Assembly: GCA_044892505.1 (NCBI GenBank)
Contig: CM097883.1
Location: 393,886,001 to 393,950,000, forward strand
Direction of reading: 5' to 3'
Source of the DNA: Schmidtea nova
Lineage: Eukaryota
DNA length: 64,000 nucleotides
Made by a program: the position numbers and the translations under genes. Positions 44,071 through 48,409 of this stretch are shown here, one piece after another. Every line of letters begins with the position of its first letter. Position 1 is the first letter of the stretch. Under the pieces are notes generated by a model that saw nothing but the letters and a program-made list of their open reading frames with translations, did not search any database and was not told where the DNA came from.

Positions 44071-45010
44071 CTATACAAACGTCTCCTCGCAATCGATCCA
44101 AGGTCTCGGGGTCTCGGATTGATTCGTAGAATGTCTTTCAGTTTTTCGAATTTCAAAGATGACGACAGATATGAGAATAATGACAAATATTGTTATAATG
44201 ATAATTGTTATTAATAATGTTACACATAGAAATTCGTTTTCCGTAGATGAAGATGATATAGTTTTATTACTTGGATTTGACACCTTGATGTGAGTGGTTG
44301 TGATTCGCGTTGATTGATTTAATTTCTGTGGGTAACTGTCCATCTCAGTATATGATACTCGAACAAATTTGTCCTCTACCAAGGTTAATTGCCAAAGATT
44401 GGAGTATTTGGCTCGCCGATAATATTTGATTTTTATTAGCACTATTTTAGAATTTGATTTTGACCGTAGTTGTCGGAAAGATAAGATCTTTGATTCATTT
44501 TGGTTCTCTAATATTCCTTGTATTTTTCCACAATAGTATAAAACAGCTCTTTGATTGGGGTACGTTTGACGGGTGACATTTATCGTCTGATTATACACAT
44601 GAAAGATAACTCTGTTTGTTTCATTGATCAAGTTTATCGTGTGTTGACTGGAATGGATTAGAACCCATTGATTGGTGCTGTCTGTTCCATTTTTATACAA
44701 TGACTTTTCAAAATATTGTATTTGAATGTTATACATCTGAAATAATTTTAAATTAACATAATTTATAAATGGTTTTCTGCTGTTCAGTGTATCGATAGCA
44801 TAATTTTGAAAGACAGTTTTTTTTGCTGGGATTCATGAGACGTCCAACGTACTTTAATTCCGTGGATTACTGGTTCAATTGATACACGATTTTGTAGCCT
44901 TTTTGTCCATACATCGACACGTATTAGATCATGAACTTTCGTAAGGTTATCTTTACGGTTTAATCGTGTTATTATCCAAGGGTAATTATAATTAATTGAT
45001 AATTCACGAG
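44071..45010 (-). pseudogene. Unknown type I membrane protein (C-terminal TM helix)
   Basis: ORF 44071-44736 has the TM segment FLCVTLLITIIIITIFVIILISVVIF. It extends upstream across an A-run frameshift near 44820 (KTVFQNYAID.LNSR.PF.NYVNLKLFQ), as shown by the homologue at 50756-51118. Confidence 0.6.
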
Positions 45011-45560
45011 TGACATGTATATTTTTGTTATAGTTTAATTTTACTGGGGGTTCGAATATACACTCTTCTTCGGAAACATTTTCTACATTAGCGTAGTATA
45101 TCACTTCGCTTTTTGGTGGTACTTCAAACGTTTGATTTAAAAAGACCTCTCCTGCTTCATGCACGACTTCATCAGTCTGCCTTTTTATTAATTTTCCCGT
45201 TTTTAAGTCCAGTGAGATTCCTTGTAATTGTTCCATGATATCCATGCCAATCAAACATTTGACAGGGCTTTTTCTCATTACAGATACCCAATGAATTACT
45301 TCCTGATTTCCGATATTCAACTTTACTTCTAGTTTTCTAATAATATTTAATACGTTATGCGTCATTGATTTAATAATTTTTGTTGTTGGCTTTATTTTCG
45401 TTTTTTCCTGTCTCGTTAGGAAACTTTCCGATACTATACTGTGACTCTAGCCTGAATCCAATAACGCTTCCACTTTTCGTTCATTAAACTGTATGGATAC
45501 TCTAGGTTGTTTTCCTCCAATTTCTATTGTCATCAATGCATAACTACATGGTAACCCAAG
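45010..45560 (-). pseudogene. pro: Retropepsin aspartic protease plus downstream Gypsy linker
   Basis: VEALLDSG*SHSIVS...CLIGMDIM, then IPP.SE/CIFEP-type linker. Same frame as the glycoprotein. Confidence 0.85.
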
Positions 45561-45614
45561 CATGTTCTTTCTTTCAATTTCGGCACTTTATAGCTCAATC
45601 TTTTCTAGTTCGAT

Positions 45615-47717
45615 TTAAATCTCATCAACTGGCTTCATTTCTCTCAACTTTTCACTTGGGTATATTGGAGCTGTTGGTATAAATGTCGGTGTGTACCATT
45701 TAGAAAGAGTGTCAATTCCTGTTAATTTTGGCATTGGTTCAAGCAAGAACCTGGTTTCGGGTTCTATTCTATTTTTCATTATGTTCCTTCGAAACACTTT
45801 CTGCTCTGATCTGCCGCCACCGTTCTCATTATCATGACCATTATTTTTATCCTCATGATCGCATAGTGATTCTTTGCTTTTCTGATCATTTCTCAATTGC
45901 GCCCGTACATTTGTCATTTCTTTGTATTGATGACTTGTAATGAAGAATCTAGCCAAAAATGGAATACAGCCAATGATCATTTTCCATGACCATCCGGAAA
46001 TAGTGTATATTCGATGAGCTGATAATACTTGCGATATTATTATCTTCACCGTTACCGCAATTACATAAATGCCAATCAAACCTGCACATGCTTGCCCCAA
46101 AAACATAAATTTACCCCAAATCTTTTCCATTGTTTTATAAGTAGCTCTTTTAAAATGATCGGGTGTCAGCAAATATTCGTAATTAACTTTTTCTTCTCCA
46201 TTTGGCAATATCGTGTCAATCATTTCTGTAATCACGCGTTCCTTTTTTGACGGAAATAACAAATTTCTTTAGGCTTCTTCGATGTCTTTGCTCGCATATA
46301 AACCCATTTGTGCCATTTTATTCATTGATGTAAAATTTATTAAGTATTCCAAATTCGTCAATTCCAATTTATCTGGTGTTCTTACTCCTCAGTAATCTGG
46401 TAGCGCTATCCATGAATCTTATAATGGAGCTAATAATCGATTACATTGCAAGGTTTTTGGTTTAACTTGTTCCTCCAGCAATATTCGGGTTATCGTTTCC
46501 ATAAATCGTAGTTTCCCGTCAACACTTACTGGCAATTCATTTGTACATTTCTCATATATTTCGATTTTTACTGTAATTTCTTTGCATCGGTAACTGTACA
46601 GCGCTTCTCCAAAGATTCTAGCAAATACACCATTTTCTGATATTAGCATGGGTGCTACTAAATTTGGGTTTGTAAACGCCATCGCCATTCGATTTCGCAG
46701 TATTTCTTTATTCAATTTACAATCGTTCAAGATCATTTCTCTATATATGTTCTCCATGGTATTTTGGCTAAAATGAAATAAATAATCAATTTTATTATTA
46801 AAATAATGAGTTAGTTTTATATCATCCCTGTGGATTCTCGTCTTCGCTTCATGTACAGTCGTTTTTGCCACATATACTCCTTTATAATTTGTTACATTAA
46901 CTGTTTGACCACATTTGCTCGTAATCTCCTTTTTAATAAAGCGCATGCTGTCCGTTGGCAAGGTTGACATTAAAACCGTCGCTGTTTGTCTTGTCCAGAG
47001 TGGAGTTGACCTGACTGTGCCATTTTGTCTATATTTCATATTAAAGTTGTCTGGTCTCTCCCTAAATTGCTCTCCGGTTAACTCTTTGAAATTAATTGTT
47101 TTTAAATGAGCTAGATTACATATATTGGTTTTAACATCTTAAACGAGAATTGACTCTCCCGTGTGACAACTAGTTTGCTTCATATTACAAAATGGATGAG
47201 TTTGTAGTTTTCCGGTATCATCATCAAAAGATCCTTCGAACATTCTCAATTCGGTTAAGTATTCCTCTATTACCACTGTGTGTTTAATTATTTTCTCATT
47301 TATGTTATACGGTTCACCTTCACAGTCACCGTCTGATTTCATTACTCCCTTCACAACTAACGTTTCTCGGATTTGATGATTTACTTTCGCTTTTAATCGA
47401 ATTTCAGGACTGATTTTTAATTCCCCCGTTTGAAAGGCTGTTAAGCAATTTTCCGGCAATACATCCACCGGTCGTGGAATGGCGTGCATTTTGATTAATG
47501 ACGTATGGCTCCATTAACCACAGAAGAATACAAAAGTGGTTCGTTTTACAATGCATTCTCTAACTTTGATACGCCGTAAATCCGACTCTTGATACACATG
47601 GTATTTTACTTCGTTTTCAATCTTTAATTTTCGAGGGTATGCGTCTCGGCACTCTGACATATCAACCACTGAGTAAATTTTCCCCATTTCGGTTTGTGAA
47701 CAATCGTATGCCACCAA
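45615..47717 (-). pseudogene. env: Chuvirus-like (class III, gB-related) envelope glycoprotein
   Basis: Motif order matches chuviral G by eye: AYDC, FFCG*WSH, DGDCEG..Y, C.L.KEIL, GEALY.Y.C, KCTNELPV...F...TRIL, GLY...LLFP, hydrophobic FLGQACAGLIGIYVI...GWSW TM region. Interrupted only by in-frame stops. Confidence 0.8.
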
Positions 47718-48409
47718 TGGTGATGGACTAATTGATTGCTGAAGCCGATTGTTTCTGACTGGAGTTACGGACCGTTCTCTGGGTTCATTAATGATGGCAA
47801 ATGATTCTGATTTTGGCTGTGAACTTTTCAGATTTAACTCAATTTTCATCGCCTTTTTGATTAACTCATCAAAGTTATTGAAGTCCACATAACATAATGC
47901 CTTTTTGATCTCCTTTTTGACACCCGTTAAGAACTGGTCTTGTAGCAATTCTTTCACCTGCTTTGCCACTTCAATCTGTTCCGGCTTTACTTCGAATGCT
48001 TTCTCTGCAAGAGTAGTCAAGTGGTACGCAAATTCACTTGCCGATTCCTCTGATTTTTGCACTCGATTATAGAACTTCTGCCACATTATCCGTTTTATAT
48101 CCCCTCCAATGAGTTTCGCGGCTAAGGCATCTTTCAATTTCATCCAGTCATTAGCAATTGTTCTTTTGCCAATTTGTTGCCAGGCTTCTCTCGCTGCTCC
48201 CTTTAGATATAGTGGCAATCTTTGCACCATTGTCGCTTGGCTCCATCCATAGGCGTAGCGTACATGTAGTAATCCGCCATAAAATCAACGAATTCCACTG
48301 GATCGCCTCAATACTGATTTACTGGCAGTTTCTGGCAGCTAGCATAGTCATTGCCATTGCCGTTGCTGGTGGACATGGGCGTGTCATCATGATTGTTTGA
48401 ATTACTCAT
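47718..48409 (-). pseudogene. gag: Ty3/Gypsy Gag (capsid region)
   Basis: Y*GDPVEF.DF...YA.AYGWSQATMVQRLPLYLKGAAREAW...FYNRVQ..EES.SEFA..L...QFL.G. One stop (48308) and one frameshift (~48255). Confidence 0.85.

Follow-up and report, generated by a model that had tools for sequence, protein, structure and literature searches.

The copy in the window and its deletion scars

The window, a stretch of 64,000 nucleotides, contains at 45010..48409 what is almost certainly part of a dead element with two deletions, which belongs to a young Ty3/gypsy LTR retrotransposon family of high copy number (Table 1). The 5' and 3' LTRs of this copy differ by 21 mismatches in 825 aligned bases. Its primer-binding site (PBS), TGGTGAGCCAGACGTGAT, is presumably tRNA-Trp-like; the PBS of copies with an open reading frame reads TGGTGAGCCCGACGTGAT. 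In a Pfam search, Retrotrans_gag (E 3e-5) is followed by matches to PF24664, Monjiviricetes_fusion, in four collinear pieces (E 6e-8 to 4e-29).

Table 1. Features of the element copy, with positions in the window
Feature	Position	Strand	Basis
Target-site copy AATG outside 5' LTR	49638-49641		
5' LTR, TGATGGGG...CCCAACA	48781..49637	-	
Primer-binding site TGGTGAGCCAGACGTGAT	48759..48776	-	
Gag capsid region, frameshift near 48254	47719..48409	-	Pfam Retrotrans_gag E 3e-5
Deletion scar 1	47716..47720	-	Comparison with open copy
Chuvirus-like G ectodomain from AYDC, predicted gB fold, five stops	46113..47711	-	PF24664; model of open copy
G membrane anchor and cytoplasmic tail/linker, two stops	45510..46112	-	Hydropathy of open copy
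Aspartic protease and start of PR-RT spacer	45049..45510	-	Pfam gag-asp_proteas/RVP on open copy
Deletion scar 2	45049..45056	-	TTCGA-CC / FEP microhomology
Remainder of post-integrase type I membrane protein (ectodomain and anchor), frameshift near 44822	44071..45048	-	
ORF2, ISG20/ISG20L2-like DEDDh exonuclease, two frameshifts	42228..43677	-	PDB matches of open copy
Nested mariner-type DNA transposon with terminal inverted repeats	40912..42213	-	Pfam Transposase_1, DDE_3
3' LTR, main part, preceded by polypurine tract	37243..38069	-	
3,346-bp insertion in 3' LTR (TGTTGGG...CCCAACA, target-site copy ATAA)	33897..37242	-	
Final bases of 3' LTR	33880..33896	-	
Matching target-site copy AATG after 3' LTR	33876-33879		

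An earlier note had described five ORFs sharing one minus-strand frame and separated only by point stops. A frame check bears out the common frame, and the translations of the gaps given there are accurate. The frame contains eight stops from 48284 down to 44786 (47516, 47141, 46421, 46391, 46271, 45617, 45590 and 45449), but the region is also broken by frameshifts, with a compensated pair near 45797, and by a short in-frame gap near 46420. The frame had been extended to 48409; it is shared below the frameshift near 48254, but gag begins, at 48409, in a different frame. The protease motif LLDSG, at 45464, is followed by a stop. ORF 44784-45365 is a deletion hybrid in which the protease region is joined to the post-integrase domain.

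Relative to an open copy, 2,529 nt are lost at scar 1 and 3,222 nt at scar 2, each a multiple of 3. The first deletion removed the zinc knuckles, the ubiquitin-like and Bcl-2-like region and the signal peptide of the glycoprotein (G); the second removed reverse transcriptase (RT), RNase H, integrase (IN) and a second signal. The capsid-G and post-protease junctions are internal deletion scars; neither is a joint between independent modules. Scar 2 lies at a repeated TTCGA-CC / FEP microhomology and is common to six copies in the genome. Five of these six RT-less copies, which may have a single origin, are in our tree, where they belong to an unresolved basal group (two changes); the intact rows of this tree were biased to young copies. 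Splicing was rejected as the origin of the scars, neither of which lies at GT...AG ends.

The position of G between capsid and protease, to which the earlier note drew attention, is also found in open copies. Its apparent replacement of the nucleocapsid, and the lack of a signal peptide, result from the 2.5-kb deletion at scar 1, which took the zinc knuckles. No signal precedes AYDC in the window copy (maximum KD15 -0.15), whereas 24 of 25 testable other copies have a signal-like hydrophobic segment there, and the G frame is free of stops as far as LLDSG in 21 of the 25. This motif test covered 29 loci, of which four did not match, two of these carrying a native junction.

A one-off template switch, raised as an alternative in the earlier note, would have inserted a chuvirus G into a gag-pol element at the position of the nucleocapsid. 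It would explain why the fused capsid-G junction has a single match in the whole genome, in the window copy, whereas the two native junctions have 121 and 166. Yet this junction is the 2,529-nt deletion, and its two sides align collinearly with a single open family (97.7% identity to the open copy in the capsid region and 96.1% to the open family on the G side). Moreover, Gag-G-PR is open in the family and G lies upstream of the protease in all families examined, so the order is not peculiar to the window copy. The open copies rule out a template-switch chimera, to which we give practically no chance.

Open copies of the family

Among the best 150 of 3,026 candidates, which were the copies scored, 21 contain a single uninterrupted frame of 3,401-3,402 codons; the polyprotein of an open copy has 3,367 aa. 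The frame encodes, in order, capsid, zinc knuckles, a ubiquitin-like and a Bcl-2-like region, signal peptide, G, membrane anchor, protease (PR), RT, RNase H (RH) and IN. A second signal-ectodomain-anchor unit follows IN in the same frame, and then comes the ISG20-like exonuclease ORF. Pfam recovers this order in the open copy as Retrotrans_gag, zf-CCHC, Bcl-2 (E 3e-4), PF24664 (E 1e-89), protease, RVT_1, RT_RNaseH, Integrase_H2C2 and rve. The Bcl-2-like matches (E 3e-4 in the open copy and 8e-6) fall below the Pfam cutoff, at 21.6 and 26.8 bits vs 31.4, and a BH2-like W-x4-GGW motif is also present. Ubiquitin-like matches are likewise below the Pfam cutoffs (Rad60-SLD E 0.054, ubiquitin E 0.032). 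A conserved PR-RT spacer has no Pfam match to dUTPase in the open copy, and Pfam finds no MATH, BIR or ankyrin domain in its ORF1.

The earlier note had referred to the Pao/BEL element Anakin; by its sequence features the present element is Ty3/gypsy (Metaviridae), not Pao/Anakin. The LTRs have TG...CA ends and are accompanied by a PBS, a polypurine tract and a short target-site duplication (4 bp in the clearest fetched copies), and a Retrotrans_gag capsid is combined with the order PR-RT-RH-IN. The nearest solved RT is that of Ty3 (E 1e-86, next best 1e-55). Pfam finds no Peptidase_A17 in the open copy, and DUF1759 only at E 0.07. In seven of nine fetched copies the LTR pairs are 99.3-100% identical, and element length is 16.8-17.4 kb. 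The family is young, high in copy number and, judging from its similarity to Schmidtea elements, likely planarian. A second genome family has the same layout in about 3,000 aa, and among 16 public polyproteins scanned, G precedes the protease in nine and RT in five.

The glycoprotein, the post-integrase unit and the exonuclease-like ORF

The earlier description of G as chuvirus-like is supported by PF24664 and by chuvirus G proteins as its best viral matches; it matches G of Lishi spider virus 1 with E 2.7e-37. We modelled G of an open copy as a monomer (pLDDT 89.5), which has a predicted gB/G-type fold with a long central helix and conserved cysteines. In fold searches with this model, herpes gB ranks first in the PDB (E 4e-15) and chuvirus G first among viral matches (E 6e-39); TM-scores to solved gB are only 0.41-0.45. 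G therefore models as a gB-like class III fusogen. In the open copies this gB-type ENV lies between GAG and POL, with its ectodomain flanked by signal and transmembrane segments. A signal-like segment also precedes G in all 12 distant polyproteins, 10 of which, read by eye, carry small amino acids at -1/-3 relative to a point two residues upstream of A(Y/F)DC.

The ectodomain of G has dN/dS of 0.02-0.04 in three of three subfamily pairs, like RT and IN; these values are rough because dS is near saturation in several domains. Constraint on G at the level of RT supports a working envelope. An infectious role between animals is one interpretation; alternatively, with an appreciable though less than even probability, G may be retained for a role within the host, such as budding into the ER or vesicles or spread from cell to cell, for example into stem cells. 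Such a role finds support in close relatives of the element in a related planarian and in the G phylogeny, where a strongly supported branch separates polyprotein-embedded G from stand-alone viral G, a pattern consistent with long vertical descent. This phylogeny is a quick, unrooted version with rows chosen by similarity and one named virus. RT-level constraint, however, suits entry equally well.

The post-integrase unit consists of a signal (aa ~2975-2996), an ectodomain and an anchor (aa ~3311-3346), with signal and anchor assigned by hydropathy, and is kept across distant relatives. Leads from ESM Atlas, scoring 0.84 in this family and 0.91 in the second family, and an L-x-P-x-T-x-Y motif in two of two distant polyproteins checked hint weakly at a fibronectin-III-like ectodomain. 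Pfam and PDB profile searches of the domain gave no fibronectin-III match, none of 1,733 candidates was a longer homologue, and a profile comparison between the ectodomains of the two families showed no homology (probability 0.06%). A fold model, from a 9-row alignment, was uninformative (mean pLDDT 35.9). ORF2 of the open copy matches PDB 7yw5 (E 2.2e-7) and 1wlj (E 9.5e-6) and is of the ISG20/ISG20L2-like DEDDh type, with an HS-x-ED motif. In the literature searched, seen in part, we found no description of a post-integrase membrane unit and ISG20-like ORF2 in such elements, and the membrane protein is possibly undescribed so far. Repbase entries and the supplements of Grohme 2018 may already note either.

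Expression, significance and known relatives

Very probably, a single frame in full copies codes for Gag, for a predicted class III fusion glycoprotein and for Pol. We propose, as the more probable course of expression, that this polyprotein is threaded through the ER membrane as one chain and would yield enveloped particles; topology and cleavage are read from hydropathy and motifs. Gag, nucleocapsid and the ubiquitin-like and Bcl-2-like domains would be made in the cytosol, after which the internal signal (aa ~1049-1076) would open the translocon. A cut by signal peptidase, likely immediately upstream of AYDC, would leave the Bcl-2-like domain tail-anchored, as in cellular Bcl-2 proteins. 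The G anchor (aa ~1614-1645) would then stop transfer, so that PR-RT-RH-IN would emerge on the cytosolic tail of G. Trimers of G would cluster protease monomers and carry Pol to sites of budding, with no need for a Gag-Pol frameshift. The second signal and anchor would display a further ectodomain, and ORF2 likely trims RNA.

A strict 1:1:1 ratio of Gag, Env and Pol is unusual for retroelements, and output may thus be regulated by splicing or in other ways. Retroelements generally require Gag in large excess over Pol, and a Met at the start of the internal signal could begin a separately translated G. Both points are in keeping with spliced or subgenomic messages that give Gag, G and Pol in unequal amounts, the full polyprotein being a minor product. 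We consider this unlikely, as the frame is open over 3,400 codons in several subfamilies with near-saturated synonymous sites and in distant relatives, and GT...AG ends are found at neither scar.

An improbable but broader interpretation of the single polyprotein is that these flatworm elements are two-glycoprotein retroviruses, in which a gB-like fusogen would act with a post-integrase fibronectin-III-like partner or decoy, Pol would ride on the Env tail, and the Bcl-2-like and ISG20-like proteins would counter host defences. The post-integrase protein could be an attachment partner or a cytokine-receptor decoy, and Pol could be packaged on the Env tail instead of on Gag. We know of no gB-plus-helper design described for retroelements. 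Should the second membrane protein act as partner to the fusogen, it would bear on the choice of target cells, such as stem cells, by invertebrate retroelements.

Nematode NERVs are said to have a continuous gag-env-pro-pol ORF. In planarians, a single gag-env-pol frame has been in print since 2019, so the architecture is not novel, contrary to one suggestion in the earlier note, and the oddities of the window copy are deletion scars. What the present family adds is compactness, very young age and high copy number with a G constrained like RT, together with the post-integrase signal-ectodomain-anchor unit and the ISG20-like ORF2. Burro elements of planarians have been reported to carry env in frame between gag and pol (Arkhipova and Yushenova 2019, PMC6431247, section 7). 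In that account, ORF1 of Burro/GYPSM1 comprises retrotrans_gag, CCHC knuckles, Ubi2/SUMO-like, BCL2-like, env and PR-RT-RH-IN, and its env matches mononegavirus fusion proteins. A dUTPase-like domain between PR and RT is a further Burro trait. Env lies in frame between the BCL2-like domain and PR, the same order as here, where Bcl-2 is below the Pfam cutoff. Burro/GYPSM1 exceeds 30 kb with a 4,873-aa ORF1 and carries MATH, BIR and ankyrin cargo, compared to about 17 kb, 3,367 aa and no such cargo in ORF1 here; the smaller size and missing cargo make this element Burro-like rather than Burro proper. Section 7 of PMC6431247 mentions neither a post-integrase membrane protein nor an exonuclease ORF.

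Platyhelminth elements have also been described as GAG-ENV-POL with a gB-type ENV (Chary and Hayashi, PMC13524379), in a main text that does not mention Bcl, ubiquitin, exonuclease, polyprotein or single ORF. Smed_errantivirus_1 of Schmidtea mediterranea, listed there as GAG-ENV-POL of HSV/gB type with 45 copies, is a close homologue from another genome: over domains I-II of G its alignment with the open copy is gap-free and shows 203 identities in 251 residues (81%, by eye). ENV also precedes POL in the nematode NERVs (Sacco et al. 2022, as cited in PMC13524379), which differ in their hosts and, according to PMC13524379, form a separate POL clade. Anakin (Dezordi et al. 2020, PMC7642597) likewise combines a chuvirus-like glycoprotein with an LTR element, but is Pao, whereas Gag, RT and IN here are of Ty3/gypsy type. 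Finally, the rotifer elements Juno and Vesta (Rodriguez et al. 2017, PMC5408684) resemble this family in having, downstream of pol, an additional ORF for a DEDD-superfamily exonuclease; their ORF3 encodes a DEDDy exonuclease, whereas ORF2 here is ISG20/ISG20L2-like DEDDh.

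The family and its decayed copy in the window

The region flagged in the earlier note, which had read a chuvirus-like glycoprotein (G) between gag and the protease in a single minus-strand frame, is real, but its details were misread and it is already known in kind. When a genome search with one piece of G as query was followed by scoring of the best 150 of 3,026 candidates, 21 lay in an open frame 3,401 or 3,402 codons long, with further subfamilies at 3,390-3,397 codons. LTR pairs were 99.3-100% identical in seven of nine copies fetched with flanks, and the elements span 16.8-17.4 kb. 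The closest solved structure to the family's reverse transcriptase (RT) is that of Ty3. The order gag, G, protease is the normal one for the family.

The five ORFs in the window do lie in one frame, and the gap translations quoted in the note are correct. The gaps had been said to contain point stops only; in addition to eight in-frame stops between 48284 and 44786, there are small indels near 46420, 45797 and 44822 and a frameshift near 48254, which places the gag start (48409) in a different frame. Pfam recognizes Retrotrans_gag followed by four collinear pieces of PF24664, a fusion-glycoprotein family. The two LTRs have 21 mismatches in 825 bases, indicating that this copy is older than the open copies, and it is itself unable to make any of the polyprotein products proposed below.

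Features of the window (nt) and of the open polyprotein (3,367 residues from the first Met)
Feature	Window position	Residues	Remarks
LTR element containing the region	33880-49637		AATG duplication at both outer ends; PBS and PPT present
5' LTR	48781-49637
3' LTR			interrupted by 3.3-kb insertion
3,346-bp insertion	33897-37242 (-)		LTR-like ends TGTTGGG...CCCAACA; ATAA target-site copy; two ORFs (35346-35849, 34404-35021) without any Pfam family; possibly a long solo LTR with genes
Older relative of this insertion	~5138-7541		68-84% identical in pieces
Mariner-type transposon	40912-42213		~28-bp inverted ends, broken transposase; just after ORF2
Sister-subfamily post-integrase membrane-protein fragment	49700-50971 (-)		immediately upstream of 5' LTR
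ORF2 homologue	28131-29535, 31144-31893, 22483-22828 (-)		35-50% identity, amid LTR-like pieces, ORF1 match absent; a further relative, heavily deleted
Putative hAT-type and Tc1-type transposase relics	10443-11938, 13710-14198, 15229-15732, 18144-18683, 24753-26475		by eye
N-terminal part			capsid, then four CCHC knuckles
Region after knuckles		~650 residues	weak ubiquitin-like and Bcl-2-like signals
Hydrophobic signal before G		~1049-1076
G		from 1077	starts AYDC
G anchor		~1614-1645
Protease		1830	LLDSG
RT		2236	YIDD; then RNase H, integrase
Second signal		~2975-2996
Post-integrase ectodomain		~300 residues	many N-glycosylation sites
Final anchor		~3311-3346

Compared with an open copy, 2,529 nt are missing from the window copy between capsid and G, as are 3,222 nt between the protease and the post-integrase domain. 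The capsid-G scar has one match in the genome, compared to 121 and 166 for the two native junctions at the same settings. At 25 other loci testable by motif (4 of 29 were not), AYDC follows a signal-like segment in 24 and G reads through to the protease stop-free in 21. Because the scar is unique and the signal is kept elsewhere, the missing signal peptide, correctly reported for this copy but not true of the family, and the nucleocapsid position of G, which results from the 2,529-nt loss, are traits of one decayed copy. The protease/post-integrase scar, common to six copies, fuses two TTCGA-CC words and is in frame because each encodes FEP. The six copies (L070-L075) have the same in-frame loss of RT, RNase H and integrase together with several nearby residues, and all now carry stops; they are possibly an old non-autonomous sublineage that retains env.

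The glycoprotein and its relatives

A library search found 1,400 relatives of G at E<=0.001, including the glycoprotein of Lishi spider virus 1 (26%, E 2.7e-37). The structure predicted from an 86-row alignment (mean pLDDT 89.5) has herpesvirus gB ectodomains as its top PDB matches (E 4e-15, TM 0.41-0.45) and chuvirus glycoproteins as its top viral matches (E 6e-39, TM up to 0.71), so that the model agrees with the fold suggested earlier. Among public sequences, the closest relatives are polyproteins; G lies ahead of the protease in 9 of the 16 scanned and ahead of RT in 5. A hydrophobic segment lies ahead of G in all 12 relatives examined, with small residues at -1/-3 in 10 (by eye). In a quick, unrooted tree, 16 polyprotein-embedded G sequences split from 34 stand-alone ones on a branch with SH-aLRT 100, and this split points to an old capture. 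Four distant G-bearing polyproteins (P0006, P0009, P0010 and P0018) have at least two tandem aspartic-protease domains after G. P0011, a G-PR-RT-RH-IN polyprotein, is recorded as a Flavobacteriaceae MAG protein; probably animal DNA was binned with a bacterial genome.

Alongside this family the genome holds a second, with open frames of 2,992-2,993 codons in elements of ~13 kb and the same layout, including the post-integrase unit and an ORF2. It is abundant (loci L088-L091 and L094-L097), with LTRs of 1.0-1.2 kb, a different PBS, two protease-like D[ST]G motifs downstream of G, a shorter post-integrase ectodomain and a degenerate, exonuclease-like ORF2.

A proposed mechanism and the modules after integrase

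The module order, open frames, hydrophobic segments, youth of the copies and constraint are observed; it is inferred, and we consider it fairly probable, that the polyprotein threads its way through the ER membrane. Translocation would start at the internal signal, which would be cut ahead of G, so that the Bcl-2-like domain stays tail-anchored. The G anchor would return the chain to the cytosol, so that Pol would hang on the G tail, and G trimers could then gather and activate Pol. The second signal and anchor would display the further ectodomain. The main rival on the point of expression, control by splicing, seems unlikely. Between subfamilies, with dS near saturation, dN/dS is 0.02-0.04 for the G ectodomain in all three pairs, comparable to RT and integrase, 0.12-0.17 for the post-integrase ectodomain and 0.23-0.38 for the Bcl-2-like region where estimable. 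A role for G purely within the animal, which would fit either polyprotein threading or splicing, is possible but somewhat doubtful.

ORF2 (482 aa) matches ISG20L2 (E 2e-7) and ISG20 (E 1e-5) and retains the DxE, D and HS-x-ED motifs. The post-integrase ectodomain gave no usable fold model and no fibronectin-III match in Pfam or PDB searches, and homology between the ectodomains of the two families was not detected; a fibronectin-III-like fold is a lead only, from ESM Atlas scores of 0.84 and 0.91 and a motif seen in two distant relatives. Neither the post-integrase membrane protein nor the ISG20-like ORF is mentioned for such elements in the passages and literature searches covered, and both may be new here, or may be present in Repbase or supplements.

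Comparison with known elements

Exonuclease cargo is known in rotifer LTR elements, according to the available text (PMC5408684). Anakin, with which the note compared the region, is a Pao element (PMC7642597) and not the closest system. In the portions available, Chary and Hayashi (PMC13524379) report gB-type ENV in GAG-ENV-POL elements of Nematoda, Bryozoa and Platyhelminthes, including six in Schmidtea mediterranea; related work includes that of Sacco et al. 2022 on nematodes and that of Grohme et al. 2018. In the G segment of Smed_errantivirus_1, from Chary and Hayashi, 203 of 251 residues agree with the open copy (by eye). Together with the likeness of the second family to Smed_errantivirus_3, this makes a related planarian the probable host. 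Planarian Burro, as described by Arkhipova and Yushenova 2019 (PMC6431247), encodes in ORF1 gag, CCHC knuckles, Ubi2/SUMO-like and BCL2-like domains, env with matches to mononegavirus fusion proteins, PR, a dUTPase-like domain and RT, and was called the first example in which env lies in frame between gag and pol. Our family has this order for its recognized modules and would work alike, but differs in size and cargo; we therefore class it as Burro-like, a GAG-ENV-POL errantivirus but not Burro proper.
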